Of a stretch of DNA of 64,000 nucleotides, positions 2,055 to 55,288 are shown piece after piece. Below the pieces are notes generated by a model. The model was not told the origin of the DNA, did no database searches, and saw nothing but the letters and a program-made list of their open reading frames with translations. Source of the stretch: Amoebophrya sp. A120 (lineage: Eukaryota; Protista; Dinoflagellata); NCBI GenBank assembly GCA_905178155.1, contig CAJINV010000002.1, positions 6,912,743 to 6,976,742 on the forward strand. The letters are read 5' to 3'. Numbering within the stretch: the stretch's first letter is position 1; each line of letters starts with the position of its first letter. Position numbers and translations under genes: made by a program.

Positions 2055-5000
2055 ATGAGCATGACCTCGTCTACTGCTCCACCTCGAACAGCTGCCGCCT
2101 GCAAGGGCGGCGCTCTTGCTCTTGAGTGGCGTAACATCACGATTGAGGTGGACGGAGGGAAAAAAATCTTGGACAACGTTTCGGGGTTCCTACCCGCGGG
2201 CGAGACCCTCGCCATCCTCGGTCCGTCCGGTTCGGGGAAAACCACGTTGTTGTCTCTTCTTGCGGGCGTTTTCCGGGATGACGGAAAGATGAAGATCACC
2301 GGCGACATCATCGTCGGGAACGAGATGGCCGATAAGGAAGCGAAGTCCGATATCCTGAGTAAAAATGTCCCCACACCATAGTCAAGATGGGGAATCGGCT
2401 AGACAAATCCACAAGTTTTGGCTGTTTTCTTGCATCACTATGTCGCTCCAGCGCCTGCGGAGGCTTGCCTCCAAAGCTATGCTGGACAATGGCAATGTCG
2501 GTGCGGTTGTTTTAGCATCACAAATTTGCATTCGTAGTGTAGTGCTGTTTGAGCTAGCTCAGCAGCATGACAGACAGAGCATACCATGCTGATTGCAGCA
2601 TGACAAATTGCAAAACACGACTAGAAACTGCTTCTCATGGGACTCCGCATGAGAAACATTCTCAGCATGCCGATTTGCATTACAACTTTGGGGTGGGGAC
2701 GTTTTTAAATAGGATATCCGATGCGAGGATGCATGCGTATTCCAAGCACATGAATTACATCCGCATCGTGGAGCAGTACGACACGTTTCTCGGTTCCTCC
2801 ACGGTCTGGGATATGCATTGCAAATATGTCTCGGTCTGGAAAAATGCCAGGTTTGTCATGCTGTGCTAGCATGACTGTCAAGTCTGTCATGCAAGGTACC
2901 CAAAACTGCCACTTTTGTGTCATGCAAAAACCCAGTTTCTCATGCAGAATAGGCAACACCTAGCGACTCAAAAACCTGTCATGCTGAGCCGTCATTTCTG
3001 GCGTTCTGTTGATTCGCCAACCAGCATCACAAGTTTCCAGACCCAGACATATTTGCATTTCATATGGGAGCACATGATGCTAAACGCCAGCCTGCGCCTT
3101 TCCCATTTGAAGTCCGACGAGGAACGGGAAGAGAAGGTCGTGAGAATCCTGAGTCGGTTGCGGTTGCAAGGGTTCGAAACCGTAAAACTCCAGTCTTTGT
3201 CCGGCGGGCAGAAGAAGCGGCTGTCTGTCGCGGAGGAACTTTTGTCGAACCCCGCGATCTTGTTTCTCGACGAGCCGACGTCTGGGCTGGACTCCACCGT
3301 CGCGCGGGAAGTGGTCGAAATTTTCTACGATACCAAGCACATTGATCAGTGCGGGGAGGCGCTAGCACGGAAGATGTCGATTCCATCTGGACAAGATGAT
3401 GGCGCAGCTGGTGCGACGAGTAGGACCTCCAAACAACGGACAAAATCGGCAACAAGCATGAGATCTGGCACTGCTGGTGAGCCGACAAGCGCGACCTATC
3501 TGTACGGCGAAAGCATGATGTACTCCCGGGAGCCCCGATACGCGCAGTTTCAGTCCGGCGACAGTCGCAAGTCTGCCTCTTTCATCGAGGAAGGCGGTTT
3601 GGAGCCGAAATCCCTGACCGACCGTGCATTCGACGAAATTTATGAAAATGTCCAAAACGACGCCAGCGGACGAACCAGCGGCGCAGCGGGAAGAATCGAT
3701 TTTCTTCCAGACGCACCGACCACCGCGTGGGATCGTGCGCGCCAGCGCGTGGAGGTAGCGAAAAAACTGAAGAATAAGAACGCTGAAGAAGAGGATGAAC
3801 ATTTGACGACGATCATCTACACCATTCACCAATATCCTTTGCAAACGTATAGCACTTGCAGTCAATTGAAATCATGCGCCGTGATAAATCTGAGTCTCTA
3901 CCTCTAGTACCTGGTCTAGCATGACAAGTTGTGCTCTACTTTGTAGTCCTTGAAAAAATTTGTATATATGCAACTTTCGATTAGTGCGTGTGCGATAGTT
4001 TTGCATTGCATAACCAACCGTCTTCACTCATCTGGTCCTGGTTCAAACATTCCATGTTTCTGTCCCAGGGAAAAACCATTTATTTCGGCCCCGGTAGTGA
4101 TGTGGTCGATTACTTGGAGAAAAATCTGAAAAACGTGACGTGCCCAAAGGGCTACAGCGCGTCCGAGTTCGTGTTAGACACGATCAACGACAAGGAGGCC
4201 GTCGATAAAATCACAGAGGTCCGCACGCAAGAAAATCATTCGGCAAAAGAGATCAACGCAATCGCGGCGGAGGCTTTGGAACACATGCGGCGAGACGGCC
4301 GCAGCGGAAAGAACAACAACAGCACTGATGATAAGGAGAAAGCCCTTTACGCCCCGTGGTCGACCCAGTACCGCGTTTTGTGGACCCGTTGTTTCCGCGA
4401 CCGCTTGAGGGACGTGAATAAGACGAGACTCACCGTGATCGGGTCCGCGGTGATGCTGCTCCTGCTTTCGCTGTGTTTCTGGCAGAACGGAGAAACACCG
4501 CAGCAGGCCGGGGCAAGGTCCGGAGCGATGTTCATTTTACTCACGTTTCCGATCATGAGCGAGGTTTTCAGCTACATGATCGGCATCATCCTCCTGCAGC
4601 CACAGATTTGCCGCGAGTACAAGACGAAAAGGCTCTATTACATCGGTCCCTACTGGCTGGCGCAGCGCACCGGGACTATCCTGTTCGACTACCTGCAGCT
4701 CGCGGTGTTGTACGTGACTTCACTCTACTGGACGATCGGTTTCTTTCCGGATTTTTCCCCGGTGAAGTATTTCGAGTTGTTGGCGTACATATTGGTGACC
4801 CAGACTATCGGCCACGGGTACGGGATTCTCCTCGGAAACATTGTGACCGATCCGGGGAAGATGCCTTTTCTCTCGTCGATTATGGTGCTGCCGTTCCTCT
4901 TCATCAATCCAGCGCTGGCACAGGGATTGAAGATCCCGCTCTATTTGTGCTGGCTGAACTACATTTCTCCCTTCTACTGGTCTTCGAAACTGCTCGTGTG

Positions 5001-5475
5001 GTGGGCCTGGAAGGACTTTGTGATGCAGGATTTGGATCCGACTGCGGAGGAACTGACGACGTACGCGAACTACTGTGTGTACCAAGATAACACCGGGCAA
5101 GTCTACACGTGCGACGTGATTCACCAAAGCCACACCCTTATCCCGGCCGCTGATTGGTTTAACGAAGGCAAGCCGTTTCTCCGGTTAGAGGGGAATAAAC
5201 TCCTGCCCGCGCAGTTCAAGATCGACCCAACGCAACCGTTCTGGGAGTTCTGGCTCGCGCTGATCATGTGCTTCGTGCTCATCGTAGTGCACAACGCTTT
5301 GGCCTTTACGACCTTCGCGTTCCGGCACAAGTACACGTGCAGCTGCTCGGCGATGTGCAGCAGCCGACGGAAAAAATTTGCGAACGCGGGTCGGAAAAGG
5401 AAGCTTGCTGGCGGTAGTCTCGTTGGGGAGGCCGAAGTTGCGGGAGACGACGATAAGAAACCACTTTTGCCATGA
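2055..5475 (+). CDS. ABCG (White-like) half-transporter, ~868 aa; join(2055..2350,2722..2811,3070..3832,4018..5475)
   Basis: Walker [11 protein letters not shown]-loop region [17 protein letters not shown], signature LSGGQKKR, Walker B/D-loop [12 protein letters not shown] and H-loop TIHQPS (the last rebuilt only after removing an insertion), followed by an ABC2 membrane domain. NBD-TMD order is the ABCG order. Confidence 0.93.
2351..2716. mobile_element. introner-like non-canonical intron element, 366 bp, 5-bp direct repeat TCCGA
   Basis: Left end TATCCTGAGTAAAAATGTCCCCACACCATAGT pairs imperfectly with right end ACTTTGGGGTGGGGACGTTTTTAAATAGGATA. TCCGA at 2346-2350 and 2717-2721. Removal gives ...KSD-ARMHAY in frame. 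Confidence 0.88.
2812..3064. mobile_element. introner-like element, 253 bp, direct repeat TGGGA
   Basis: 31-nt IR TATGCATTGCAAATATGTCTCGGTCTGGAAA / TTTCCAGACCCAGACATATTTGCATTTCATA. TGGGA at 2807-2811 and 3065-3069. Removal gives [14 protein letters not shown], typical of ABCG. Confidence 0.92.
3833..4012 (-). mobile_element. introner-like element, 180 bp, direct repeat ACCAA; reverse-orientation member of the 21713/37546 family
   Basis: Starts TATCCTTTGCAAACGTATAGCAC and ends GTGCGATAGTTTTGCATTGCATA. ACCAA at 3828-3832 and 4013-4017. Removal rebuilds the H-loop TIHQ|PSS. Confidence 0.9.
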
Positions 5476-7585
5476 GATGTACGAGGGTGACGAGAAAATC
5501 ACAAAACAGCCCTCAACTGATTTTTTTGATGTAGTTGTGATTTCGTCATCGTCGATATCGCTTCTAGGCCTGCTACCGCCGCTTTAAATTTAGATTAGAC
5601 CCTAGCACGTAGTAATGTATGATAAACATGATGATTTCATTTTGGTTTTTGTTGTGTTGATTGACTTTCACGCCAAGATCGATGCGTATCCACGATGGCG
5701 CACGATGCGGGTGCATCATCCGCAGCTGCGTCATGATCTTGTTGTGATGCGACAACGCAATAGTGCTGCTGTATTTTTTCGTACAACCCCAACCTTAACC
5801 TTTACCTTTCCCATACTGAAAGCGTTTTCCAACCTATTGGAGCCGCCCTAAAATGTGAATTTTGCGGGCACTCTCCAACAACTACAACTAGACGCATTTC
5901 TGTTTCTTGAACTGATTAAGCGAAAACCGGTTCCTCCATGATCTTCTTGGAACAGACAAGGAGCGATGAAATTCATTGAAGAGATAGAGACTTATTTATT
6001 TCTTTCATAACTGTTGAAGCTCCGGCGAGACATCCTCTACATTTGTAGCAGTTGCTGGAATTGCAATTGATATCATGACTGTCATGGAGAACCTCCAGAA
6101 GAAGCGGTTGCGTTTGTTGATTGGAACGTGGTATAATGGAGGAGGTGTTTCTTGCACGCGACCTTTGTTACTCACAAAAACCCTCTACGCACGAAGGGGC
6201 TCAACTTTTTAGTTTGTCCCTTTATCCGAAATGCTCTGCTTGGAAGCCCTGCTCCAACAAATCGAAGCAACGAGGAAACTGTTTGGCTCCTGCTGAGCAT
6301 GGCCAATTAAGAACAGCAGTTGCGCTAGATGTGAGCACGCAATTGAAAGTGCTTTTGCTGTTCGACGCCCGACTGGCGCACAACTTCACTTTCCACAAGA
6401 GCGACGAGAAACATTTGTACTGCTATTTTATCTGAGAAGCAGGGGAGTCTCATCGGCAACGTTCTGAGTTGTTTCTCTTCATCTCTTGCGTTCTGTGGTA
6501 GTTTTTGTTTTGAGTTTGAGAGGCCTTGTTCTGATTTTTGCTCACAAAATGCACTACGTAGAAGGTGAACGAATGGGCGTTGGGCTTCGTTGCGTGGCCG
6601 GCCGATCGTTCTCTGGCTGGCACGCACGGCGGCGGCCGTTTGCGCACGCAGGGGCCGGGCGGTCCGACATTGGCGGCGGAGTGTGGCCATCCACTCGGGG
6701 AAGCAGATTCTGCCAGCGTATTTCCACGCCCCTGATGTTCGGCGAGGGAGCTGCGAGCCGGATTCCGAAAAAAGTTGCGAAGCGCGAAGGCGGGCCGTGG
6801 AAGAGCGGGGCCGGCGCGAGCGGAGCCCTTGGCTCGGCGTGTTGGTTGTGTTGCTGCGCTGCCTGGCGCGCGCCTGTGAGTGTGGCGCTGTGGAATGCAT
6901 AGCAGCGCCCTGCCGGCGGCGCCCCTGCCGGTTCGTTGCCTTGCCGTAGCCCGCCCGGGCTGCCGGCGTTTTCCCCGCTCGCTGCCGGCGCGGCTGCGCG
7001 CCCCATTGTTTCTGCGGACTCCCGCTCCGCTCGCGCCCTCTTCCGTTGCCGATGCGCTTTAGCCGCAGCCATGGCAGGGGGCCCCGCAAGCCGCCCCACC
7101 CGGCCGGGCGAGCGCGCCCTGGCTGTTCCAGCTTCTAGGCAGGGAGATCAAGTCGGCGCCGGCCGTGTCTTCGAAGGCTTTCTTCAAAGCGCGGAGCAGC
7201 CTCGTCTGGGCCTGTTTCGATACAGCTTGCCCCGGGCGAATGAACGAACCAGACAAAGAGATCCACTGTGACCTGCTTGTTTGTTTCGAGTGACCGCTCT
7301 TGGCTCCTCTCTAAGAGCCCCGCGGCCGTGTGTCATCGTGCCTGACAACTGTTCCCCCGGCGGGCGGCGCACCTGAAGATGGAGCTACAGAACTTGTGTT
7401 GTTCCTGTTTGGAGTATATTGCTTTGTTCTCGGAGCGAAAATCCTTCTAGTCGTTGTTGGCTTGTCTTATCGGTCCTTCTGCACGCGGCCCAGATGCATC
7501 AGACCATTTTTACGAAGCAAGTGCCCCTCGCGCGCGCTGTTTAAAGGAAAGCTACACTCGTTATCTCCCCCACACCTCCACGGAA

Positions 7586-10134
7586 ATGGCAAAGTCGTCG
7601 CGCCGTCCAGTACACGCAAGTGTCCTCGCAGCCATACCCTCCGCCATACTTCTGTACCAAGCTGCTATTCTCCCGGCAGAGACCCATGCCTTCTACGTTG
7701 ATTCTGCTTCCTGGAGGTCCGCCGGTGGCTCCCTTTTCAGCGTCCACCACGGAGACACGTTGAACATAATTTTGCGACAATTGAACGTCACGGAGGAACA
7801 GGAGAAACATGATCGGGAGCAGGAAGAGGAAAATCGGAAGGCGGACAGGAACATTCTGCGCAAGAAGAACCAAACCAACAGCACCTCATCGAAAACTTCA
7901 CATGGGAAAAAGCAAACATCATTTCCCGAGCAGTGGTAACACTTCGCTTTATTCTTTGCAAATGGCTGCTTCTCAATCACCGTTGTTCATGGCAGGATTG
8001 ATAGGGCTACTCGATCAAACTCAGAAAAAATTCACTATCGTGCACTCAGTAAATGCAACTCGTTTCAGGTTTCCCCAGGTTTTCGACCACTTCGCATCAT
8101 CTTCAAGTTCCTCCTCCTCCCAAACATCGAAAAACGACACCTCCACCTGGCCCCAGCGTTTTTTCGAGAACGACCAGCATTTCCAGCCGAATGGTCCGGT
8201 TTTCCTGATGATCGGTGGCGAAGGGGAGATCAGTGACGCGTACGTGTCGGACAGGTTTCTGGCGGCCTATTTCGCGAAGCAGTTCAACGGCAGCGTGTTG
8301 GCGTTGGAGCACCGGTTCTACGGGAAGTCGCAGCCGTTCAACGGGGACTTGTCGGATCTGCAACTGCTCTCCTCCCAGCAAGCGCTGGCGGATTTGGTCG
8401 GCTTTGTCAGGGCGCAGAAGGACGGGAGGGTAGATGGTCTTGGTGGTGAACAAGAACAGAAGGAAGACTCATCTCTTGTTAGAACGGAGCGAAATAAATC
8501 GAGTTCGACGGAAACTCTAACTGCGAAATACGCCAACTCAAAGTTCATCTGTCTCGGCGGCTCTTACCCGGGAAACCTGGCGGCCTGGTTCCGGCAAAAG
8601 TACCCCGATGTCGTACACGGGTGCTTGTCGTTTTCCGCACCTGTTTTCGCAAAAAAAGACTTCTACGAGTACGGACAGATGGTCTACAAGGCGCTCGATG
8701 TGTCGAGGCTGGAAGCAGGAGATGTGGCTGCACCAGACACAACTGCAACTACAATAGAGAGGACAGGGCGAGAACAAATTGAAAAAAAACGAGCCAGCAA
8801 GAGCTCATCTTCAACAGCGCCTACTCCTTCTTCCGCGGCATCAGCGACCTCCAGAGCCGCATCTGCCTCCACAGCACGAGACGTGAGTGCCAAGCTCTTG
8901 CAGGGCTACGAAGCGATTCTGACGGAGCTGAAGACCGGCACGCCGAAGGCGACGGAGCGGATTAGGAAGAAACTAAACGCCTGTCCGTTCACGATTCTAT
9001 CCGATGCGGATATTGCCAACGTGGAGAGCATTTTGACGGGCGTCACGGCCGGCGTGGTCCAGTACAACAACACCTTGCCGGAAGGACGAAAAATTTCCGA
9101 CGTTCGTAAGCTCATCGAGAAAGCTGAGACGCCGGAAGCCGCAGCGTGGGGCGTTTTTGAGCAGTTCTCGGAGTACTTTCTAGCGAGTTTAGCGAAAGTG
9201 TCGCGGATTGGGAGGAGTGCAAATGCGGTTGTAAGGGGTGGAGAACGGGAAAAGATTTTGCTGAAGAAGGCAGCGCCAACAAGTAGAAGATCAGGGGCGT
9301 CAAGGAGGTAGGAAACTAAAAATGCTGATAAGTAGATACTGATACACCCTGTGAGTAGAATCATGACTATGACACAAATTGAAATTGAAAATAAAGCGCA
9401 ACTTCTCCGAAATTTCATCATGATTTGAAACACTGGTACTTAGGTCCGTCCGAAGCCTTCCATCCTCTCCTACGATCGCATCTCTGAACAGCACAACAAA
9501 GTACACCCGGAACAATATTACCAATAACGACACTGCAACGAACGTGACAAACCGCACTTCCTCCACTTCTGCGCAACACAAAGGGCGGACGCGCTCAGAG
9601 AAGCACGCTGAACAGGACAGTTGCGTCGATTACAGCCAGCGGATTGAGTACACTTCCCTCGTCCCCGACTCCGCAGCGGCCGCGCGGTCCTGGGTGTACC
9701 AAACCTGCAACGAGTTCGGGTACTTTCAAACGTCCCGCGTTTCTCTACACAACAAAACGATGTACACCTCGGGGGTGTCGGACCCGAGTCTGTGGGACGG
9801 GATTTGCGAGAACGTGTTCGGCATTTACGACACGGAAACCCGAATCGCGAACACCCGGAGTTACTACGATATCGAGGAGATTCCGGACAGAACGGTGTTC
9901 ATCAACGGGGCCCTGGACCCCTGGAGCACGTTGTCACGGAAGCCGAATGGGGAAAAAACGAGTTATTTGGTCCCGCACGGGTCGCACTGTGTCGGTTTGT
10001 ACGGCCACCCGGGGGATGACAAGGTAATGCCGGCGGCGCAGGAGTTGCAGCTGGAATTGGAAAAAACGGTGAAGGGGTGGCTGTTTGGTGGAGAAAAGGA
10101 TGAGGAAGAAGAGGAGCAGGAAGTTTTTAATTGA
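7586..10134 (+). CDS. secreted/lysosomal serine carboxypeptidase, family S28, ~759 aa; join(7586..7935,8069..9307,9444..10134)
   Basis: N-terminal hydrophobic segment. Motifs WFPQVFDHF, PVFLMIGGEG, LEHRFYGKS, LSSQQALADL, GGSYPG (catalytic Ser), WVYQTCNEFGYFQT, NGALDPW (Asp) and SHC (His). Two GT-AG introns restore the frame. Confidence 0.92.
7936..8068 (+). other. canonical GT-AG intron (133 nt)
   Basis: GTAAC...TTCAG; splicing gives QW-FPQVFDHF. Confidence 0.88.
9308..9443 (+). other. canonical GT-AG intron (136 nt)
   Basis: GTAGG...CTTAG; joins ORF 7809-9311 to the frame of ORF 9544-10134. Confidence 0.78.
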
Positions 10135-12599
10135 GGAAAGTTGTTTCTACTAATATTTATTTTTATTTGAGTTTGATTTTCAGTGGCTTACATTTTTGAA
10201 CCATGCATCAGATTTTTTTCGAAGCGAGAAACTACGTACCGAGCATGTGCATGAGCAAGAATATGGAGGACGCTTGTAATGCTAGCACCTTCTTCGAGTA
10301 GCGTCCTTGTGCGAAAAATATCAATAATTTGCGGGGTTTAGCTATACCAAGTAGTCACCTTCACCACGTCCAGATTTTGCGTTCACTGTGCACCCCTGCA
10401 CCATTCGGCGCCAAGGTGTACAAATAGTCTGAGTTGATGTAGTAAGTCGCCCACCCGAAGCCCGAAGTCCGAAGTTGTGGCACTTGAATGATGTGAACAG
10501 AATCGCTAGCCATATCAGGTGTCCGGTAACGAAAAGCTCTTGTAGATGAAGTGACTTCATGTTTTTCTTTCTATTCATTTTTCTGGCACTAGCGTACATT
10601 GATGTCCTTGAAACTCACTGTGTGGCTGTCCTCGTTCGAAGAGCTGAACCTTCAGCATCGGCTTTGCTCTTGCGGTCATTGCCACGAAAAAGAAAAGGAC
10701 GGACGACATCCACTCCAACGAACCCGATACATGTAATCAACATGGCAGCTCTACTCCTTCTCAATGAGGGCGCGCTTGTTCCGCCGCGCCGAGACGGAGG
10801 CTCCGCTCACTGAGCGAGAGGGTGAGTGTTCAGTGAGCAAGAAGGTGAGTCTGAGTGTGTTTTGTTCTTTTGCGGGCCAGTTTTCGAATCATCCATCAAC
10901 TAACCGAAGGACGAAGCGGCGCGCGCCGGCGCCGCTTTGGGAGGCGGAGCCTAATAGCCCCGGAGCGAGCTGCGCAGATGCATCAGCATGGGCGTGGGCA
11001 GCACCGCGGAGCGGGGAGGACGTGAAGGAGGCGCCAGCGCTGCCGGTGGGTGCGCTCGCCGGCTACCGCGGTGGGCATTTTGCCGCGCCGCTGGCATCTG
11101 GGCCGCGTTGTGACTCTCGACGAAATACGGGAAGGAGCCGACCCGGGGCCGATCGGGTCCGCGTGGTTAGGTAGGGCAGGGGCAGCGGTTGCTTTGCCGG
11201 CGCCGCCGCCGGCCCGCCCTTGTTTCGGCTCGGCGCGAGGCGAGCGGGAAAAGGGCCGCGGGTTGCCCCGCCGACCTCTGTCGCCCCGGCCCTCCCAAAG
11301 ATCGGGCGCGCCGCGGTGCTATTTTTTCCAGGCAGGGAGGGCGGCCGGTGCGCTTGCGAATCGCTCGGCCGGTCCGTCCGGGGCCTCCTCCTATCCGCTC
11401 TGCTGCACGGATACCGCCGCGGGCGAAATCGCGCAGGCACGCACGCGGCGCGCTGGCCGTGCGCCGCGTTCATGTGGGTAATGAACCCGTGCGATATTTC
11501 CCGGCGCGCGTATGGCAAGGCCCTGGCGCCCGCACGGGGCAGCCGGGCGCGTTTGGCCCGCCCCTTTGGCAGTGTGGCGCAGCGGCCGCGAGTGTTGGCC
11601 CGCTCGGTCGCTGGGTCGGCCCCGCCCCAAGCTGGGTGGTGTGCGGCGCTTTTCGTTGTCGCCCGCGGTATGGCGCCCGGCCGCCCCTTCGGGAGGCAAC
11701 GCACGAACGCGCCCCGCGTTTTGCTGGGAGGCAGCGCCCGCCTGTTTTGTGTGGGGAGCGAGGGGCCAGCGGCCTGAAGGGATCCGCGCGCCGCGCGCAC
11801 TTCTTCTGGTGAAGCAAGTAGCAGGCCTCCCCGTAAGTGGGTGTTGGTTGGCCCTGCTCGCGGTCGAGGCCCTGCGCGGGCGCGCTTGGTTTCATGCCTG
11901 GGGCACGTTCCGCAGCCCGTGGTCGGTGCCGCCTCCTGGGCCCGTTGGATGGCTCCTTGTCCCCAGCATTTATCTGTGGCAGGGACAGGAGGTTTAGCCC
12001 GGCAGCACTGCTTGCCCAGGTAATAGATTCTTGATAAGATTCGCGGCCGCTGTGCGCAAGCTGGCTAGGTGGGCCAGTCACGCAAACTTCTTGCTTCACA
12101 TGACGCTTACACCCACCTTCCTGGGCAAGTGCTTGCGATTATTTGGGAACGCCCCTGAGCCAGCAACCGAAGAAGAGGATGTCCATTGAGTGGGCCATTG
12201 TTCGTCATGAGCGAGTTTTGAGATGACGTAGTTGATGAGGGTTTTATACACATTTAACGATGTCGTAGCGAGTTACGCGTGAAGCGACTGTCTATGCATG
12301 TTTTTCTTTTTAGTGTGTCAATGTCTATGTGTTGTGGTTATGTTTTCTTTTTCCCGGAGGATGAGGAGGAGCGGTGATTGAGACTTGTGGCGCCGCGTGT
12401 TTCAACATCTTCATCATCTATTCTGTACGTAGGGTAGGTCGATGAAGGTCGCGCAAGAAGAGTACTGGTTGCGTTCGTGCTGTCGTCGTCGGCAGCCCGC
12501 GATATAGCAATTGTTCTTTGTGATTGTGGAAAGGGGACGATGTTGACTAGCTCACTCCGCCACTCTTTGCTGCTGCTTACAAGGGAGGTAGCGCCCTAG

Positions 12600-15500
12600 A
12601 TGGCTGCCTCCAGCAGCTCCACCTCCCCGTCCCGCGGCCAGCAGCCGACCCTGCTGCGCGACCGTCCGGCGCTCGATGACCCGCTTGCATCCACCGACCT
12701 GTTTGGGAGCGGAAAAAGGGCGGCCGATCACAATGCGGTCGCGCAGGGAAGTCTGGCGTCCCTGCGGAAGTTCGACCCGGGCGGCGGCGCGATTGGCACG
12801 ACCGCGATCTTGCACCGCGACCAGGCGATCGACCAGAACATTCTGGAGCCGGATTTTAGCTTCCGAAGAAATTTCATCTCCGACCCAAACGTCCGGAAGT
12901 TGCCGCAGCTCCTGTGTCTCTGCGTCATCTTATCCACAGAAAATTTCCCATCCCCATCCAAAGGGCGATTTTTTTAATGAAAAAATCAATCAATTTTTCA
13001 AAAAAAAAATAAGGTGCGGACGGTAACGGCTGGACTATGTGCGTCATCATTCCGATAGCTAGCGACGTCTCCCGGAAGCAAATAGGTTTAGGTATATAGC
13101 TAGATCTTCCAAACACACATCAGATAAAGTCGGTCAGTGCCAGCGACGCCAGAGCCTGGGCCTACCCCTCGGAGAACCACGCTGGCTCGGCAGCATAAGG
13201 TGCTGGCCCGGCTTCAAATGAAGCTGAGACTTTGCCTCGGAAGGCTCGCGGCGAAAATTCTCGAACACTCTCGAGAATTTTCTTGCTCGGGCCTTCAAAA
13301 AATTTGAAAACGGTGCAACTTTCGAAAAAAACTCGCGTTCCCAAAAATCGTGGATGGGAAATTTTCGTACGGTGCTACGGTCAATTGAAAAATCTCCCAT
13401 CCTCTCACTTCTAAAGAGAAACGAGTGGATGGGAGATTTTTCAATTGACCGTAGCACTGTACGAAAATTTCCCATCCACAAATTTTTGAAAATTGAATGG
13501 TGGTGAACAATTTGAGCATTTTCGCTACCATTTTTTTGTGGATGGGAGATTTATGCACGGTGCTACGGTGAGTTGAAGAATCTCCCATCCACTCATTTCC
13601 AAAGAGAAGTGAGTGGATGGGAGATTTTTCAATTCACCGTAGCACCGTACGAAAATTTCCCATCCACTTTCAAAAAGTGCCACTTTTCGCTCATTTTGGC
13701 TGATTTTCACAATGTTGCTCAATTTTCGCGATTTTTTGCTGTTGGCCGGAGATGAAATGCTCTCGGATTGTTCATCAAATCCGAAAAATCGGCTTGTGGA
13801 TGGGAAATTTTCAGACACAAGCAGGCCCGCCCATATTACGACACATGGGGCCAGCGAGCATCTGCGCCGTCGCCTCCCCTGTCTCGGACCTCGGAATTGT
13901 GCCTTCAATGTGGGTGCTTTGATGTCAAGTAGCTAGCTAAATTACCTGATATATAAGGCTTCCGGGAAACGTCACTACCTAGTTCTCATCTCATGAAAAC
14001 ATCATCCAGATCATCAGCAAATACCTGTGAATTTTTTTGATTTTTTTTATGTTTTTTTGAATAAAAAAACCGGATTGTGGATGGGGATGGGAAATTTTCT
14101 GTGGATACATCTTCGTCGTCGGCTACAACTGCGTCCGCAATGTGAAAAATTGCGATGGCGAAGTGAAAACAAGAGTAATTGCTTCTGGATCTTCTACAAC
14201 GCCTTCTCCTTCACCATCATCCACAACCGACAACTACTACGAGGACTTGATCCACAAGACGATGCCTCACGCGTTTCTCTACGGGGCGGATTGTGCCCTC
14301 CGCGGCATGCTCGCGGGTTTGATTCTGGGCGATATTGCGCAGATCGTTCTCGACCAGTTTCCGGATCTGCAGGAAAAGGTCAAAATTCGCCTTATCGCGA
14401 GTTCGTTCGGCATTGTGCTCGCGGCCGTCGGTGTCTTTCTCGGTTTTCGCGAACAAAACACGGACTACTTCTTTCTCGGCCGTGCGGGCGGGACGGTCAT
14501 GTTCCTGCTCTACCATTTGTTCTCCATTGTGCGACAGTACGACAAGCCGACCTCCAAACTATTCGGCACTGGGAGGAAAATATCGCAAAACGAGGTCTCT
14601 TTCACGCGGGTGAACCAGGAAAGACGGATTCTGTTTTGGCGGTTCGTGAAGCTCTACGGCGTTTGGCTCCTGTGCTTCATCCTGTTTCTGTCTGCGAACC
14701 GGACTTTTTCCGAGCGGATTTACCCCGAAACTCGGTCGTGGCTGCAGAGCCAAATTCCCGATTGGCAGTACACGATCGCGTTCTTAGAGATGCTACTGGT
14801 CGCGTTTTTCTTTCAGGTCTGGCTCCCGCTGTTCTTCCGCTTCTTGGCGCACGGCGTGACGAATTTGGCGAAATTAAGACGCGAATTACTGTTCAACGAA
14901 GACCAGGCGGCGGAGTCTTTGATCGAGCACCAGGAGTACTGGGAGCGGATCGTGTTTTTCGTCAATTTTCAGATGGACTGCCTGCGGTTCTGCTGGGGAC
15001 GGGCGTTACTCTTGCGGATCTCCCGCTACGAGCTGTTTCTGTTTTTGGTCTTGAAGGATAGCTTGTACCACTACCGGCACTTTGGGGTCTGTTACATCGA
15101 CGCGGTGCGCTCCTTAATGGTAAAAGTGTTTGAGCCGAGCGGGGGAAAGGTCGGGCTAGAGCAGGAGGTGGAGCAGGTCGTGGAGTCGGAGTCGAGCTCT
15201 GAGGAAGAAGCTTTTTCGGACGAAGATGATGCTGATGCAACAAGTAATGCCGACGGAATTTTCGCGGACCAGGAAAGCAAAAACGACTTCTGCGCAACAT
15301 CTTCAAAAAACGACAACATCAGCAGTCCGACGATTCCCAATGAAAACTCCACAACCAGCGCGCCAAATGTGAACGCTGCTTCATCTTCTTTAGCTGGTTG
15401 TTCGGGATCTCCGGTGCCCCCAGCGGCAAAAGCGAAAACAAGCCCTCCGGCCTCAGGAGGAACTCCTCCAGCAGCTGCCGCTGCAAAGCAAGGCCAGGGT

Positions 15501-18500
15501 GGACAAGTCGGTGAGGACGTGGGCGCCGCGGCGACCTCCACATCAGATGTTGCAAAAGGAGAAGATCCTCAAACGCACACTCCCGCCGCACAGGTGGCGC
15601 AACAACAAGATCTCACGGAGGAAAAGCCTTCTTTTCTGTCAACCGCGAAACGCAATTTCAAGTCTCTGACTTCGATTCCGTCATTTCTCACTGCCGTGTG
15701 GAAGTACGAAATCGATTTCCAGCAATTAGCTACAGCGGACGATCAGGTGTCGAAGAGCACGCAACTGAATTCGCTTTTCAAGAGCAACCGGAGGGGCAGC
15801 GTCGACAGTACGATCGCGCTGTTAACGGGTGGAGCAGGTGGGCGAGGAAGCTTTGGTAACGTTGTTGAAACAGCAGCTGCACCAATGGACAGTATAGGAG
15901 TTTCAACTACTACAGCAGGTGGCGGGAGCAACGCAGCTTCGCCTGCTTTTCCAACAGGAACAACTGCCGGAGGAACTTCTCCATTTGGCGCAGGAGGAGC
16001 CTCCAGCCGCCCCGGCGGCGCGTCTTCGTCCGCCACGCCGTCCCTGTTTTCGGGCGCAAACAGCACCACCAGATCTGCGTTGAGCAGCCAAAAAACAGTC
16101 AGTAAGCTGGACGAAGCGAGCGCGTCCTTGGCGAAGTTTGACGCGGCGGTGACGGGTCAAGTGAAAAACAAAGCGGAGCTGACGCGCGGATTGAAAATCA
16201 ACGCCAAAAGTCCCATGATGCGAAAGAATTCGTCGGACGGAAGCGGCGGCTCAGCCATGATGAATGTGGGCAAGCAAAGCTCATTTGGTGCGAAGCAAAC
16301 CACGAAAACCGGGTCGCAGCGAGAAGCCGGACTCATGGAGGAGCTACGTAATTTTACACTTCCTCGTAGTTCTTCTTTTTTGTATCTTGAGCTGCATTGT
16401 GCCCCACGAGTTCGTTTTGAACTAAACTTGTCAAGATGAAAGCATGCCGGCTTCCACGAGGAACGCGTAGATGAGAGATTGTGATGACCAACTTGACTTT
16501 GTACAAAAAAATCAGGGATGTTTCGCGAGAATTTGGAATCGCGGAAGACAGAGCTTGTGGATCGTAAATCCACGGTGAAGCAGACTCCGGCGAACACCCG
16601 GAGCCTCACCTTCAAAAGATTGAAATCTGGTTTCGGCATGCTGAAATCCGCCCCCTTGCGAAAGCAGACCCCCACGTCGAAACGGAGCCACAAGCGCAAC
16701 GCAGATCCTGAAGCAGGACCGGAAAGGGGCAATCCCGCCGAGGAGAGCCCGACGCACTCAGACGACACTGATCCAGAAAACCCCACTGTCGGAAAGCAAA
16801 GCAGCGGTGTGTCCACTACGGTTGCATCTAAACGATCCTTCCGATCGCTCGCCCTTGGTGGGCGGTCACGTGTCCTCGGTAGGCTGTTCGGCGCGGGCGC
16901 TGCAACGCGGGATTGGGATGACGATGAGGACGAGGACGATGCCCAAACCAACAAGCGACTCAGTCAAAACTCCACTGACGAATACTCCGCCATCAATTTT
17001 CATTCTTCTCGCGCGATGCAGACGATACGGAGTCTCACACCGTCGGTGGTGCAGGATGTAGGCACGAGCACGGAGATGCTGTTGCGGGAGACCTTTCTGT
17101 CCGGTGCGCACATGATCAAAAACGTGTTCCCCTTGGTCCAGAAGCAATCCCACGTCATGCTGAGCAACAACGTTTGTGTGGTGGTTTCGAATCTTCCGGC
17201 CAACATCGGCAGGAGGAAAAGTGGCGGCAGTGTAGGGCGGGTTCCTGGTTCGGGTGGTACGGCATCGACAAAAGTGAAACGCTCGAAGTCCTTGCGGAAA
17301 AGAACCAAGAGCAGGAAATCGAACGCTTTTGATACCACCTCCACCTTCGGTGGTGACAAGACAGGTATTGACACGGCTGCACCCGATCTTGGCGACTGCG
17401 GGGGAGTAGATTTTTCCCCTCGCAGTGCTGGTGATGCTGTGCTAGCTCCTACGGACCCTCATGCGGACACCAGTACCAAAGAAAAAGATGCAGAAGATAC
17501 TTCAACCATATTCAGCGGGCTCTCCAAGAGCGCGCACCTGCGTAGTGGCAGATGGGCTAGAACAACCGTCGGCGCCGGTAGCAACTCTAGCGCGGATCTC
17601 AATGGAGGAGCGACTAGCAGCAGGGGCGCAGGTTCCTCTTCTCCATTAAGGCGAAACAACCAACGAACCAGGACGGAAGTTTTTACGGAAAAACTAAAGC
17701 AAACGGTTTTAACGGGCAGTAAAACGGCCAAGGAACGGAAAAAACGAGACGAGGAGAGGGCGGCAGGGGATCAGTCGGTTGGGCTTCACGTCACAACGTC
17801 GCGAAAAAGCGGTCGGGCGAGTATTGGATTAGGACTGCTGGCGAAACCGAATGAGGAAAGTGCGAAGTTGCCGGGTGCGGGAGCTACACCAAATAGCGCG
17901 TCTGCTGCAACGGGAAGCGCGCACTCGCAGCGAGCGACATCGAGCTTCGACTTTTTCGGAAGTTTGTCCACGGGTAGATTCAAACGCAACAGCACGTTGG
18001 CAGCAGGTTCGACGGATGATTTGGTATCAGCTCCTGACGGAAAGAGCGAGCGCGATGCTCAAGTAGAAGTGCCGAAACAGGACGATGAGGAAGAATCCCT
18101 GGACCCCGTGTTGCCCAAGATCACTGAACGATCTGAAGCGCCGGATGTTGCAGGCAAGAAGACTTTCGGCCCTGCTGCAAAGGAGGCGACAAAAGATAAT
18201 GAGAAGAACAAGCTCGGTATTCCTGGAGGTGGTGGACAGCAACAGCTGAGAGTCGGTTTTCGCTTCTCCTTGGTTTCCTCCATTTCCAAGCAGAGCTTCC
18301 GGCCCAGCGTCACGAAACAGGAAACTACGGACTCGGCAGCTGGTGGTGTCACTTCTGCGGCGTTGTTTTCCCCTTCGAAGTTCAACGCGACCAAGGCCGT
18401 GCGCGCTTTGGACGTGAATGCGACAGACGCGTTTTCCGCGATGACGAAAGCCAACAGCTTGATCAAGACTTTGGCCGGGTTCCAAACCGACAAACGGTTC

Positions 18501-19208
18501 TTCGCCCTGCGGGGGACCAACGCGAAAATGAACGCGGCGACGCGGGGTAAGATGCGTAGTCAGAACCCGGTGATCGACGAAATGCTGGAAGAGATGAATC
18601 TTGAGGTGTCTGCCGCGCATGTCGCCGTTGTCGAGGATATCTGCGACGCATTTCAGCTTCGGGTCTTTCTCCGTTACATGGCACGGTACATTGTGAAATT
18701 GATGACGTGTTTCGCCTTCTTGGCGACGCCGACGGTCGCAAGCTTGACCCCGACGAAGTATTTGCCTGGGTTTAACGAGTACTACGATAGCCACGCTTCA
18801 AGTGTTGAAAACAAGAACAGTCGGCAAACCATTTTTTTCGGAACAGACTCCCGGACCACGTTTCTCCTGATGGTGTGCACGTTTCTGGTTTTGGACTCGT
18901 TAGAGGCGGTGTTTCTGCTCTCCCAGGTGTTGCTGAAGTTCACGAATAAGCCGAAGGAAAAAATCAAAAAGTACAATGCGATTTTAGCGAACAAACCCCT
19001 GCGCTGGAGTTGCACGACGTTTTTAGTTTACGCCTTGATGGACGTCTTTCAGACCAGGTGGGATCCTTGGAGTCAGAGACTTTGGGAGGAGGAGATTGGC
19101 GTGGAAGGAAATACGGGTGGTGGTATAGGCGAAGTAAAGCCTTCTGGTCAGGGTCTAATGGCCATGCTCTTTCAAGCCTGTGAGGAAGACATTTTTAGTT
19201 TATTCTAG
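12600..19208 (+). CDS. large hypothetical multi-pass membrane protein (~1750 aa) with a very long Ser/Gly/Ala-rich loop; join(12600..12930,14113..16347,16516..19208)
   Basis: Three long ORFs join in frame after removing the 12931-14107 element (LCLCVI|FVVGYNC) and a GT-AG intron (16348-16515). Several hydrophobic helices lie at both the N- and C-terminal ends. No family recognised. Confidence 0.75.
12931..14107. mobile_element. large foldback introner-like element, 1177 bp, direct repeat CATCT
   Basis: Perfect 30-bp TIR TATCCACAGAAAATTTCCCATCCCCATCCA, with degenerate IR extending ~190 bp inward. CATCT at 12926-12930 and 14108-14112. Two internal ~130-bp palindromes. No credible ORF. Confidence 0.93.
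13350..13667. repeat. two tandem ~130-bp palindromes (13350-13479 and 13538-13667) with ~53-bp arms built from the TIR core GTGGATGGGAAATTTT
   Basis: Arm GTGGATGGGAAATTTTCGTACGGTGCTACGGTCAATTGAAAAATCTCCCATCC is followed by its reverse complement after a ~24-nt spacer; the second unit is a diverged copy. Confidence 0.9.
16348..16515 (+). other. canonical GT-AG intron (168 nt)
   Basis: GTAATT...ATCAG; gives EEL-R-MFRENL in frame. Confidence 0.8.
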
Positions 19209-20356
19209 GTGGCAGTTTTTGGGCGATGAAATATTGAAACTTGTCCTTCTAGTAGGTACAACGTGGTTAAAGTTTACAATTTCATTTTTCATCATCAAAT
19301 TGGAGATTGATGCTGGACTTTGCATAAAAATATAAAGCTTACCTGAGTGTGCGAGACTCTATCATATCGGTTGCGAAACAAGAGCCCTCGGGAAAAAGGT
19401 AAAAGCCAAGTTCACGTTGTGTCGTTGCCTGCAAAAGGTAAAAGCGAAGATCGGGGAGTCGGAGTGGTCTTCAGCTCTTGTAAAAAATAGCCCGCGATTG
19501 GAGAAAGACAAGGACATGAAAGTGGATTCGAGTTAGAACAACATGCGTTTTACATAATTGTAGTAAAAGTGACGCTGGTGGAGCTGGTGCCGGTGCGCAA
19601 AGTAGAACCAATTAATTCGAATGAATCTTCAAAACCTCTCGGCGAGTACTGCAACAAGAAATCGGCTCTATTGGAGTTAGGTGTTCAGCAGAAGCTTTTC
19701 CTCGATAATTTTCACCGAGCTCCAGTCAGAAGCACTTCTATCTCACTCCCATTGCGAAAAAGAACAGAGAGTCGGTTGCGTGTCTACCGTGTCATGATAG
19801 ATTTTGAGTATACTCCTGTTTGCTGCGGGGTTCGTTAGGTACGTATGTTGAGCATGACGCTAGACAGGAGTACTCTCTTGCAATAGCCACAGCATCAGGA
19901 CGACGAGGCGTTTGTACAGGACAAGGGAGCTTCGCTTGTGCAGATCATTATCCAGATCCCCAGTGACTGAAATTGTACCCCTACCCTTCTTGTCAATGAT
20001 GCCGAGCAAAACCTAAACCTACTATCTACTTTAGAGAAAATTTTATCGCACAGTAACATTATATATTTTACTTAGGAAGAAACCTCGCACTTGCTCTGTT
20101 TTTTTGGTTTTGTAATTGTATCGGGATATATGGTGCTCCACTCGATTGGGATTTCGCACTAGCCCGTTGCTGATTTTTTTATTGCTAATACGAACAGTTT
20201 GCCGATCAATAAATGCTCACATCCACCTACTCGTCCCTCCTGATCTCTTCGTCTTGGAAAGGGGGCTGCGAAACGAGTAAGAGCCCACTTCTGTACTTCT
20301 CGCGCAAGTCGTCCTACCACAACTTACAAAAAGCTGTCAAGAGCATCGTGGCGAAG

Positions 20357-22442: not shown

Positions 22443-22677
22443 CTAGATTCGACGTTTCCGCTCGGGTTCAGTTTTGAGTTTCTAACACAGTTCTTTCGCA
22501 ATTTGTTTGGGTTTTGAGTTTTTAGTTTACGAAAAAACCGTAACCGAGCTGTATTGCCTGAAGTTGAAATCATCCTAGTGCTGTAGGATGATGAACTTGA
22601 TACGAGATGATCGAGGGGGCTCATACTTTATGTTTATTTATAGTACTAAGAAGTGTAGTTTATTTCCTTTTGTTAAT

Positions 22678-35000: not shown

Positions 35001-35518
35001 GGCAAGCAACCAAGTGGCGCCGGGCCCCGCCCGGGCCGGCTTCGCGCCGGGCGGCAGGATAGAGGCCGGGGGGCGCCCTTGTTCGTAAGGAACGAAGGGC
35101 AGCTAGGTTGCTCTTTTCCTCCGCCGTGTATTTTATGCGAAGGTGGGGCCTCAAGCTTTGTCGGCCTCGGCGCAGCAGTTGCCTTGCTTGCGTTTGACAA
35201 CAAAAGGGCCTGCTTAGAGAATACAGAGCGGACTATCATAGTGAAAGCATATATGTGCCCCCGTCCAATTGCACAATGTGGCGCCATGTCTCTGGTTGTG
35301 GTTGATGAAACAGTTCCGTCTCCGTGTTGTTTTCACGGACGATGTTCTCTTGACCCGTTCAGTATAAAAGCTTGAGCATCCTCTTTTTGGCCCCAACCTC
35401 AGAAAAATCAACCCAGACATCGCTCACAGACGCAGTCTCTCCTCGTGTATACCGCACAGTATCTTCTTTCTTGTTCTCTGAGTCTGAACGAACGCACAAC
35501 TGCGGAAATAAAGCCAAC

Positions 35519-38500
35519 ATGTCCACCACCGCGCTCCCAACGCCCGTGCGTGTTGTCGTTCCCCGAGGTACAGTCCGATCCTCTTCCGCCGCGCCTCACC
35601 GCAGGAGGAGCAAAGACGCAACAACCGGCACACCCGTCGTCGATGTGGTTGAAGAGGATCTGGATATCTTCGGGAAATCGATCGAAGACAATGTGGAGAA
35701 TGTTTTGTGGTTCGGTCCGGCGAACGCAGCGCTGAAAACTGTCGGCTTGGTCGCGTCTTTGGATGACGATGTTGGCGCGAGTGTTGTGGGTGTTTCCTCA
35801 TCGTTGTCCAGCAGCAGCAAGTGCTTTGTATTGCAGAAGCTCGCTCACGCTGTGGATTCGAAACTGCGGAAAATTGTTGAACGACATCCAACTTTTATCG
35901 CGAGTGATAAGAAGACTGATGGCGGGGGACCACCAGGCCGCAGCTACAGCTTTTCTGTCAGTTGTGTTTCCGTTCCGAACCAAACAAGTGCCACTACCGC
36001 CCCTTCTGTCGACAACCAGCCTCAGATCCTCTGTCCCAAAACAGCCTACGACAGTAAGGCGGAGCTGTGGGAGGAAATCATCCGAGAAAGATGCCTTGCC
36101 AACCGTTGGCGCATGGCACTGTCTGCTTGTGATTCCCAAGCCGCTTCCAGTCTGCTCTTCACTTGGACCGTGGAGAGAAAGGCAGACGTGGTTGGAACTA
36201 GTACTGGAGTCGCGGGTGGCAGTTTGCATCCGGCGCTGTCGTTCCTAAACAATCCGTCGAATTCCAAGAATTCGTCCGAGGAGTTCCTGTTCATGGTGCA
36301 GCTATTACTCCTGCCGACCATGGCAGCCCAAAGTGGCATCTACGACACCTTTCTCAAACAGGTCGCCGTTTCCAACATTCACCGGCAGCTGACGACGAAG
36401 GACACACCGAAAAGACAAATAACGGCTCCAGGAACTACTACAGAATTCCCATCCATCTCCATCGAACAGCTCCTGCAGTGCTTTTTTGCCTGCTCGACCT
36501 TTCGCGCAACCGTTTTGCTGTTCGGTGAGGGAAGAGAAAACGGGAATGTCGTGAACGCGTTGGAGATCGCGATTGGAGAAATGCGAGCAAATTTATCCAG
36601 GAAAAACACCCATCCCCATCCAATTTGTCATGCAAAACATGCATAAAATCCACTTCCACTGTTTGCCATGCCAAAAATGGATGGGGATGAGGGTGTTCTC
36701 CTGGATAAAATTTCGCAGCATTGTCAGCTGAAAGTCTCGACCACAACACAATCAAGGACCACAAAAGTGTTGATAAGATTCTCCAATCCGTCGGACGAGT
36801 CGTGCCAGAATACATGAGTTCTCTGAGCAAGAGGGTGACCACGGAAAAAAGTTCAACCGCGGCAGGGGCAGGAAGCGGCAGTATCAAAGCGGAGAAGCGG
36901 GTTTCTTTCGATGGCGCAGCAGCGGAACAGGCGGGGAGCTCGGGAGGTCTGCCGGGAGGAGGAGGTGGCTTGTTAGGCGGAACATCGAGCGACAAGACTG
37001 CGACTGGTGTTCCAAAGATCATAAAGAGCAACGAAAATAAGGACTCAACCACTTCTGTGCCTTTGTTCTATTTGCTCGGTCGACATCTGGATCCCGTGTT
37101 AGATCAGGCGTTTTGTTTTGGTTTCCAGGAAAACACTGTGGCTCCTGATCAGATGAAAGTTGAATTTTCTGTCCGAGAGCCACTCTGCACGATTTCATCT
37201 ACATCTGCCGCGGCCTCAGCATCAAACTCCACGGCAACATCTTCATCCGCAGAGCGGAGCCAGGTTCTGATAGCGCCTGGCGAAGACGCCGCGCAGTCAA
37301 CGATGATCACAGTTTACCCATTCGCTTCGTCTTCGAATAAATCCGCTGACGCTACCGGTGTCGGTGCAAAGGTAACACTTCAACTGAGCTTACCTGCTCC
37401 TGCAGCTTCTTCAAAAGCAGATCACACCGGCGCCGAACAACCAGCAGCCAAGCCGAATGTGATCTTGACAAAACCTCCTCCAGGAAACAAGTCCTCATCT
37501 TCTCTGAAGCTCCGGATTAACGGAGTTTTGCTTCGAGACGAGAGCTATGCATTGCAAAACTATCGTACTAGTATAAATTGCATTACAAATTTTCCCAAGA
37601 AGAAAAATGCAATTTGTCATGCTATTTCAGGTAGAAAGTTGGATTTGTCATGCATATCTGCAATTAGTACGAGTGCGATACTTTTGCACAGGATAAGAGT
37701 TGTGCGCTCCAACCAGGCGATCTTATTTCGCTGAACGACGTCGGCCCGGTATTACAACTCGTATCCGGGGAGAATAAGAAACCTGACTTTCCGCAGCCGC
37801 TCCCCTCCGCAAACGAAATCCAGACTTTGGCTGCGATGAACCTGCGGGAAAGCAGCTCCTCGGCGGATGGAGGCTCCGCCGGCGGAGACAGAACGCCGAT
37901 CAAGGATCCGTACTTCTCCAGTGCGTATTTCAACGACACATCACCCACCGCGGTGCGAAAGTCTGGTAGTGTGAGTCCGACGAGAAATAGGAGTGTGGGA
38001 TTGGGATTTGCACAAGACGATCCTGTACAGCACCAGCGCGAACGAACGCCCGCAGATCAAGCACCGCCTCGATTGCGATCTTCACAAGGTGGAAACGCAA
38101 CCTCATCTGCAGGAGCCACGTCGTCCTCTCCTGTCTACGAGAAGATTTTATCCGAAGCATTTGGAATCAGTCGCGATCCGCTGGCGACGGAGGGGAATCT
38201 TTTGTTGCAGGAATTCAACTTGTTAGACGTCGGGAGAGGAGGTTGCTTCGAGAAAATCTTCGTAGCATCTGCATCTGAGCAAAGCAGCACAGCAGGTTAT
38301 AGTAGAGGGACAAGTAAAAGTAGAGGAAGTGGTGCTCGGAAGCAGGTGCTCTACTCGTATCGCTCCGAGTACTTTGACTCGGAGAAGATGCTGAAAAACT
38401 ACTTGCCGAATCTGCGGTATTTGTACGCCGCGACAACAGGGGTCAACCCATCTTCTGCAAGTGCAGCTTCGTCAGCGGCACAGGAACAAGCTGGTGCTCC

Positions 38501-52900: not shown

Positions 52901-55288
52901 TCAGACCGACCAGCCGGACCCGAAATGTAGTTCCCGTGCAGAAGTAGATGCTGCCTTAGCTAGTCCGATGAGGAGCAGTTGTGGAACAAAAGCCAGCGGA
53001 AGTGGCGCCAGTAGTGCTTGTTCGCCTGATTCCACATGTAAGCAGAAGGAAACGATGGCGAATGCAGATGCAGCTCCCTGTGACGTTCTTGCATCGAACG
53101 GCATGATTCCTGCTGGTGGAGCAGCAGATATACAAGTGCTCAGCTCCCCCTCCCCCTCAAAATATTGATATTGGAATATTTATTTGGTTACCAAATAGCG
53201 CGCTTCTATGTCACCAAATAGTGCGCTTTTATGTCATCAAACCGTGCACGTTTCGACCTCAAATGCGGAGCGCTTGCGTTGCTTTTTGTGCGACCAAAAG
53301 CGTCGCAAAAGTTTGCAGTCTCTCGCTATGTTGTGAAAGCTAATCGCGATGCTTTGGGCTCACTCCCCCTCGCCAAGGCTGTCCACTTCCCCTCATGAGG
53401 GGGAGTGGGCCCATAGCATCGCGATTAGCCATCAAAGTGTAATATTTTTTGAGCTCACTTCCGAGGTCGCAAAAAAGTCGCTGATTTGACGACACAAAAA
53501 GTGGCGATTTGGCGAGCATTTGCCGGAAGTCTTGCAACTTCTCAACTTACACGCAGAAGAAGGCCCGGCCTTTTCTTTTGGTTGTTGCCGTCTCCTTGTT
53601 TATTCCTGACGCAGTCATCTGACCCCGATTTCTGCGCCAGGTGTGCGGAGATCACAGGCTCGATCGATCAAAGGCACGAAGACACTCCGGGTCCGCGACC
53701 TTTTGCGACGCGTTTGCTGCCACAAAACGCAACGCGATGGATCGCTGCGCATTTATCGGAGTCGAAACGTGCGCGATTTGATGGCACAAAAGTGCAACAT
53801 TTGGTGACATAAAAACGCATTATTTGGTAACCAAATAAATTGCGAAATATTACGAAAAAGTAATACTTTGAGGGGGAGGGGGAGCTTGTCACTTGTATAG
53901 CAGATACCAAACACGAAAATTTCGCACAGAGCGAACGGGAAGAGCAGCACCACATCGTGGAAAATTTGACGCCGAAAAATTACTACGTCGGAGCTGGCTG
54001 TGTCAACAAGAATACAACCTCTGCCGTTGTTGAAGATGGCAAGGGGGGCGATCTGAATCTGTTTCAGCTGCAACATCCTGCTGCGCCATCTCTGTCTACT
54101 TCCCAGCACCCAGCACACAACTACACGACCACTCCAGATTTTAACCCTTTTCAGGGCACCCATCTACAAATAAATCGATTTGACAGCCGAAGAACCAGTC
54201 TTTCTTTCGTCCAGTCGGACGGCTGCGTGTTGACAAACAGCTGTTATGGTCACAATCACCTGGAAGTGCCTCGTGACTCAAAGGAGCACCATCATTATCG
54301 AGGAGGGACACAGCATCACCATCATCAGCGGCACGTTTTTGTCGGCCGTAGAACAGGGAGCAGCGTTCGGACCGCGAGCCCAGACGCGAATTCTGTAAAG
54401 AACGGCGGCAAAAGCAAAAGCAGGAAAAACAAAAAGCGGGAGAACCGGGATAGGAATAACGCTACTTCGAAATCGCGGAACGACAGCTTCGATACTCACT
54501 CGAGCTTGGTATCCTCTGCGGGCGTGGTTTACCATCGTCACGATCCAGACTACACCGGGAACAACAATAAAGAGCACTTCTCCCCTTCTCTATCCTCGAC
54601 CGGAAGGCAGACCTGTGATGTCGACTACTACAAAACCCTGCACGTTGATGTGGATGGTGCGACAAGTATTCGCAAGCTCTCCGCACTTTCCATCAGAAGC
54701 CTGTCGCTGTCCACAACATCTTCCTCCCGGACTCCGTCGTACATCCACGGTGGGGAAATCAAGCGCCCCTTCGTGGTGAAAAGCTGGGTGGTATATGGGA
54801 TTTTTCCGATCTCGTTCTTGTTGTCTATTCTGATCCTGTTTGGCAGCATTTTCGGGACCTACATCGACGAGGGAAAGACCACGACGATGATAGGTTTTTT
54901 CTCCGTCGTCACCTTCGGTTTCGCAATGTCCTTCGGGTTGAACGTGATCGGAAACTGTGTTGAGAAGCACGCCGCTGCTCGGAAAGTCGATGAGCTGCAC
55001 GGAGACTGTCGTGGACGAGGTGTGGGGTTTGATGAAGAAGCCGGTGTTCTTGTGCACCATTACGACCATCATGCTCCGGCGCCGGCACCACAGCCTGTTG
55101 ACTGCAGTGACAATGCAATCTTCGCAGTGCCGCCGGGTGGTTCATCTGGGGTGGAAAAGATCGGCAACGGAACAAAGAGCAGCGGCTTGTTGTTGGAACG
55201 ATGTGATGAACAAGGCCTAGCTAGTGCTAGTGACGAGCAAGCGGGTCGTGCAGCTGCGGAATCGGAAGATGTGAAGCCTTCTGTGTAG
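49902..55288 (+). CDS. APC-superfamily amino-acid/polyamine permease with very large hydrophilic insertions, ~1536 aa; join(49902..53128,53905..55288)
   Basis: FFSVSGGPWGVE, ELSCAMPRDGG..WVRRAFG, YWSMSGWDNVSSVAAEIHQPEKTLPKAL, GMLP..RHPKFHTPW and a final RPF plus two TM helices match the plant PUT/LAT and LmPOT1-like pattern. Confidence 0.88.
53129..53899. mobile_element. large foldback introner-like element, 771 bp, direct repeat GCAGA
   Basis: ~180-200-nt imperfect TIRs (53129-53311 / 53700-53899) starting TATACAAGTG..AGCTCCCCCTCCCCCTCAAA. GCAGA at 53124-53128 and 53900-53904. Internal hairpin at 53339-53429. Removal gives GAAD|TKHENF in frame. Confidence 0.93.

Follow-up and report, generated by a model that had tools for sequence, protein, structure and literature searches.

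Introners of Amoebophrya sp. A120 with TAT...ATA ends and a 5-bp duplication: loss from transcripts and probable removal by way of the element ends

Eleven elements with common ends in the window

We analyzed a 64,000-nucleotide stretch of Amoebophrya sp. A120 DNA (contig CAJINV010000002.1, positions 6,912,743 to 6,976,742; hereafter the window, with positions counted from its first letter), in which a preliminary description had pointed out 11 transposon-like, non-canonical introns. These elements, all on the plus strand, are in our reading introners of the kind already published for A120: they remain in the DNA, are lost from transcripts together with one copy of a flanking duplication, and are likely to have spread through an integrase-type enzyme and to be removed by a process that measures their ends. 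We give this reading a probability of roughly 0.6.

Three of the elements interrupt an ABCG transporter gene (2055..5475, plus strand; 868 aa after their removal; Pfam ABC_tran and ABC2_membrane): a 366-bp element at 2351-2716 (2346..2721 with its duplications, TCCGA), a 253-bp element at 2812-3064 (2807..3069, TGGGA), and a 180-bp element at 3833-4012 (3828..4017, ACCAA), which splits the H-loop motif IHQP. They are followed by a 1177-bp element at 12931-14107 (12926..14112, CATCT), with a 30-bp perfect terminal inverted repeat (TIR) and internal inverted repeats, and by elements of 269 bp at 20546-20814 (20541..20819, AGAAC), 308 bp at 21321-21628 (21316..21633), 156 bp at 21713-21868 (21708..21873, TTCCG; predicted hairpin with z -2.97), 304 bp at 28612-28915 (28607..28920, TGTTG), 114 bp at 36594-36707 (36589..36712, AAATT), and 150 bp at 37546-37695 (37541..37700). 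The last, of 771 bp, lies in an amino-acid permease gene at 53129-53899 (53124..53904, GCAGA). Below, we name each element by its first position.

The preliminary description had given all 11 elements TAT...ATA ends and a 5-bp duplication. We found every element at its described start, opening with TAT and closing with ATA, but the duplication is perfect in only nine of them, and four of five bases match in the other two, 21321 (ACGGC/ATGGC) and 37546 (AGAGC/AGAGT). Inverted complementarity extends over 16-24 of the first 24 bases. When an element was defined by TAT...ATA ends, an inverted repeat of at least 16/24 and a direct repeat of at least 4/5, the window held 11 matches compared to 0-1 in each of 40 local block shuffles. 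None of the 11 elements acquires GT-AG ends at any slide of the junction through the duplication, as had been claimed, and their ends are not those of U2 or U12 introns (GT-AG, GC-AG or AT-AC). Also as described, excision of the element plus 5 nt leaves the frame open on both sides in 11/11 cases, while retention brings a frameshift or stops in all frames in 11/11. At 12931, a 4-nt removal likewise leaves an open frame, which makes its case less discriminating.

With the three elements and 5 nt each taken out, the ABCG gene encodes a protein that matches the public A120 record P0132 at 868/868 residues; the public A120 annotation already treats these elements as introns. Three relatives align without gaps across the sites of 2812 and 3833, and the IHQP motif, assembled across the 3833 junction as the preliminary description had it, is conserved in all three. 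Exons of a proteasome beta-3 gene match A120 (CAD7934569.1) at 133/133 and 72/72 positions, compared to 126/131 and 70/72 for AT5.2 and 124/133 and 66/72 for A25, so that two window proteins are identical to A120 records. The link that had been drawn to Amoebophrya introners is therefore right and stronger than it was put, since the window is A120 itself and both the TAT start and the 5-bp repeats are in print. Among 12 exon translations, eight had no Pfam match. For the gene that 12931 interrupts, a search for longer homologues found none, which is weak evidence.

Loss from transcripts, retention in DNA and the position of the cut

To follow the elements in RNA and DNA, we compared seven of twelve sequencing runs, which covered ten of the 11 elements (all except 53129). 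None of the twelve is recorded as RNA; the RNA nature of runs X3, X4 and X6 and the DNA nature of X1 were judged from their behaviour. Contigs of X3, X4 and X6 skip two GT-AG introns (27547-27706 and 30160-30356) and leave several intergenic bins at zero depth, so these runs behave as spliced RNA; their long exon pieces show no letter differences from the window. We found that all three runs skip 274 nt at 20546 (joint 20540-20815), 313 nt at 21321 (joint 21317-21631), 161 nt at 21713, 309 nt at 28612, and 155 nt at 37546 (joint 37540-37696), while the skip of 119 nt at 36594 is found in X3 and X4 only. At 3833, an X6 contig that begins exactly at 3065, directly after element 2812, runs to 3827 and continues from 4013 to 6276, skipping 185 nt. 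In 7/7 joints listed, the skipped length is exactly the element plus 5 nt, which covers at least 7 of the 10 elements and supports the proposed removal of the element with one duplication at the RNA level; at these seven sites the sequence is lost from RNA-like contigs without GT-AG ends, as is typical of A120 introners. At 12931 and 53129, removal is read from the frame only. Single unbranched RNA-like contigs span three elements at depths of 474 and 456. Between 20000 and 39990, the RNA-like contigs hold eight introns, six of them elements and two of the GT-AG type, with both kinds in the same gene in one case.

On the other hand, X1 has an even depth of about 45 and behaves as genomic DNA. 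One of its contigs runs ungapped from 3042 to 12998 (9957 nt, depth 43.6, like its neighbours) and keeps 3833 with both stretches that X6 skips. X1 also bridges, by at least 31 letters, 12931 and 21321 at their left ends and 21713 at its right end. Since the DNA-like run keeps the elements, these findings argue against their excision from DNA.

Perfect repeats leave the position of the cut unplaceable, and Farhat 2021 marks the border position of the elements as unknown (PMC7789003). The two imperfect duplications allow a closer reading in X3, X4 and X6. At 21321, where three letters of the joint can slide, the second base seen in the transcript is that of the left copy, which puts the cut after base 2 or further on. 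At 37546, where four letters can slide, the fifth base is that of the right copy, which puts the cut after base 4 or earlier. If one geometry holds for all elements, both would be cut after base 2, 3 or 4.

Families, orientation and a shared octamer

The TIRs had been described as differing in sequence. Lengths and sequences do vary, but not all elements are unrelated. Elements 21713 and 37546 are 81% identical, and 3833 is a weaker relative of 37546 in the opposite orientation (E 1e-8). Element 21321 matches 28612 on the minus strand with 75% identity over 288 nt (E 1.5e-51), 2812 is weakly related to 20546 and matches it better in reverse orientation, and 12931 and 36594 are related at their ends only. 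The elements are thus repeated in families, as introners are, and the summed depth of X1 over them is far above single copy. Since 21321 and 28612 lie in opposite orientations in plus-strand genes and both are absent from the RNA-like contigs, the removal signals work on either strand; 3833 and 37546 are likewise opposite and both removed, and are the weaker case.

Many of the elements share the octamer GCATGACA, which has 22 matches in the window (2565..37653, both orientations) compared to 2.0 expected by chance, with 21 copies inside nine elements and one outside at 28149. A search with a paired-octamer pattern gave no match.

To extend the comparison, we used eight loci from metagenome contigs (33.2 kb), which a pattern scan with the end of one family had returned, and listed 31 further elements by hand, dropping overlapping or cross-element pairs; because of this selection, they are not a random sample. 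The 5-bp repeat is perfect in 25/31 and the octamer is present in 22/31, with 34 copies of it in 6149 bp inside the listed elements compared to 13 in 27052 bp outside them. Ends are TAT...ATA in 29/31 and CAT...ATA on the plus strand in the other two, and a GT-AG slide is possible in 3/31. Taken with the window, 42/42 elements have a TAT 5' end on the sense strand, and A stands at positions 11-13 in 36-39 of the 42, so that the TIR of published introners (TAT, variable bases, then an A-run) is seen here as well. The direct repeat is 5 bp in every case listed in the window and the loci, and the bases of the duplication show no strong bias, with a composition close to the coding background across the 42 elements. 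Relatives up to 96.7% identical occur in locus L004. The sole terminal deviations among the 42 elements, L002:3377-3641 and L003:86-305, have TAT...ATG ends on what is likely the sense strand (two cases, with weak strand calls), and this reading preserves a U.G pair at the base of the stem. Insertion is dense in L003 and L004, with seven elements each in 4.6 and 6.0 kb and some exons shorter than 40 bp.

Several elements of the window have features of their own. Within 12931, CAAAA flanks an inner inverted-repeat unit (13347-13670) that contains many GTGGATGGGA repeats and has, according to run X1, diverged copies elsewhere. Element 53129 contains a near-perfect internal hairpin (53349-53419) and sub-terminal repeats TATGTCACC/TATGTCATC, close to the octamer TGTCATGC. 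In element 2351, a 49-nt piece (2380-2428) is the only part of the window matched by the 112 raw RNA reads of run X11, which carry one fixed difference and foreign flanks; the rest of the window is absent from X11.

The window also contains an intergenic 2.07-kb element (43837-45908) of another grammar, which we take to be PIF/Harbinger-like, with long, GC-rich palindromic TIRs starting GAG and a 3-bp TAG flanking repeat. The single N of the window (about 44013) falls where part of the left arm of this element is duplicated and is perhaps an assembly join. GC-rich (0.63-0.72) intergenic blocks at 11000-12000, 24000-25400, 34000-35100 and 39400-40800 have little or no RNA-like depth and possibly represent another class of repeats.

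Routes of spread and removal, and relation to known systems

We propose that the elements were inserted by a DDE transposase with 5-bp staggered cuts, of a kind like IS3EU, GingerRoot or Ginger, and that they would be non-autonomous elements of the TIR type. Their TA...TA ends point to the IS3EU/GingerRoot side of this integrase-like group, and the shared octamer GCATGACA is a likely, putative sub-terminal binding site of the transposase. From the shared ends and the shared octamer, we infer that one mobilising enzyme may stand behind the elements. We further propose that the cut is fixed, after base 2, 3 or 4; this would restore the host sequence for any target and thereby allow exonic insertions to survive. 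Since the target is restored for any sequence and in either orientation of the element, the position of the cut must be read from the element ends. The cutter may be a hairpin- or end-reading nuclease/ligase, like the Euglena route, which we place slightly ahead of the ordinary spliceosome, although either stands somewhat below even odds.

Several observations weigh against this reading as a whole. Four of the 11 elements (2351, 2812, 12931 and 53129) have no joint among the joints listed, and the raw-read runs X10, X11 and X12 carry only 2, 112 and 38 partial reads of the window. The RNA support comes from contigs of runs that we guess to be RNA, and contigs drop rare forms. Element ends joined to foreign flanks also occur in these RNA contigs, so that some copies elsewhere stay in RNA. 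The range for the cut comes from two elements and assumes one geometry and runs of the same strain, with no difference at those two bases. Selection for RNA pairing along the stem would predict more G.U pairs than A.C mismatches, but a test across the 42 elements was null, with 32 G.U compared to 33 A.C on the sense strand. The octamer is missing from the two longest elements, 12931 and 53129, and from 9/31 locus elements, and the loci hold 13 copies outside listed elements. No coding capacity was seen in the elements and no transposase in the two long ones, where the longest stop-free stretch is 138 aa, and Farhat 2021 reports none in A120 and rejects general mobilisation by a transposase (PMC7789003). 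Three TIR patterns searched against viral contigs, and one against prokaryote genomes, gave 0 matches and no autonomous copy, and Rfam at the gathering threshold gave 0 matches.

The joints could be artefacts, with reverse transcriptase switching templates across strong hairpins with short direct repeats and no removal taking place in vivo. Direct repeats and hairpins are a known setting for such switches according to literature abstracts, the RNA evidence here and in Farhat 2021 is all cDNA, and the words 'template' and 'artifact' are absent from the main text of PMC7789003. However, unbranched contigs cross three elements at the high depths given above, and a retained element would cause a frameshift or a stop in 11/11 cases, including the conserved ABC H-loop, in a genome with 29,850 elements, which makes this explanation highly improbable. 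We consider it just as improbable that the elements are excised from DNA before transcription like the internal eliminated sequences (IESs) of ciliates, an alternative that the preliminary description had raised. Their ends and duplication do resemble transposase substrates, and X1 is one DNA-like run only, but a single X1 contig, with the depth of a single copy, includes both junctions of 3833, and the run bridges ends of three further elements, so that the absence from expressed (somatic) DNA that marks IESs is not seen in this run. An organism with no separate germline nucleus would also lose excised elements for good.

A more serious rival is a U2-type spliceosome re-tooled after the loss of U1, which would remove the same elements by a cut after base 4, with an N-U-A-U-(G/C) donor whose first base is free, a U-run situated 11-14 bases inside the 3' TIR as the pyrimidine tract, and TIR symmetry that serves either orientation. 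Both imperfect duplications allow a cut after base 4, which puts U at +2 and A at +3 in 42/42 elements and G or C at +5 in 36/42, and the four canonical introns that we examined start with GTA. A120 reportedly has nearly all spliceosomal proteins and U2, U4, U5 and U6, while U1 was not found (PMC7789003), and a review reports that non-canonical introns in Fritillaria are removed spliceosomally. There are also slight trends at the base-4 register, with a 3' AG in 6/42 (p 0.053) and a purine at +1 in 29/42 (p 0.024, under one strand assignment), but these p values carry no correction for multiple testing, and the trends disappear when only the 26 elements with a firm strand are considered. Moreover, the TAT end by itself dictates U at +2, and the 3' dinucleotide would have to be free, since it is not AG in 36/42. 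The stem would hide bases needed for pairing with U6 and U2, which we also count against a spliceosomal route. On balance, we regard the re-tooled spliceosome as a tentative alternative, with the odds clearly against it. A further reading, to which we give fairly low odds, is that a dedicated, spliceosome-independent machine removes the tens of thousands of transposon introns of A120: it would read the TAT/ATA stem and the shared GCAUGACA motif in either orientation and cut in one fixed register within a random 5-bp duplication, leaving exonic insertions scarless. If true, nuclear mRNA splicing would have a third route, perhaps carried out by a domesticated partner of the mobilising enzyme.

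Since 2021, it has been asked how Amoebophrya disposes of over 60% of its introns in the absence of GT-AG ends. Each imperfect duplication is a natural marker of where the cut falls, and thousands of them are expected among 29,850 elements; removal in either orientation limits the candidate machines, and the octamer offers a bait for a protein that mobilises or removes the elements. Together, the cut range, the orientation and the octamer make the question testable on existing data.

The system itself is already known from Farhat 2021 and Gozashti 2025. Farhat 2021 describes A120 introners in 29,850 copies and 1954 families, supported by RNA sequencing (RNA-seq), with an inverted repeat of TAT, about seven variable bases and then an A-run, and direct repeats of 3-5 nt (5 bp in the legend of Fig. 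S19) (PMC7789003), while Gozashti 2025 labels A120 family 38 'Ginger, 5-bp TSD, TA/TA Termini', where TSD is the target-site duplication (PMC12130899). The window elements share with the introners of PMC7789003 the organism, the TAT-starting inverted repeat with its A-run, direct repeats and non-canonical sequence at the borders, RNA-seq support, the many families, and the lack of an internal transposase. They differ from that account, which gives repeats of 3-5 nt and an unknown border, in that the repeat is 5 bp in all listed cases here, the two imperfect duplications confine the cut to after base 2-4 if the geometry is shared, removal occurs in either orientation, and GCATGACA is shared. 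The main texts of PMC7789003, PMC12130899 and PMC9860276 do not contain the octamer in either orientation, and, figures apart, the published text consulted on A120 introners mentions neither the cut range nor the octamer nor the removal of one family whichever way it faces, although all three may stand in figures or other papers.

Among transposons, IS3EU and GingerRoot (PMC6839031, PMC10045372) share the TA...TA termini, which we tested and found in our elements, as well as TIRs and little target preference, but their TSD is mostly 6 bp compared to 5 bp here. Ginger1 and Ginger2 differ in having TG...CA termini, whereas ours are TA...TA. The nonconventional introns of Euglena (PMC12501133, PMC11282704) likewise lack GT-AG ends and carry TSD-like repeats and a paired motif set a constant number of bases from the cut sites (N3CDG...CH'GN5-6|R), but they have another motif and belong to another lineage, and circles are reported in Euglena.

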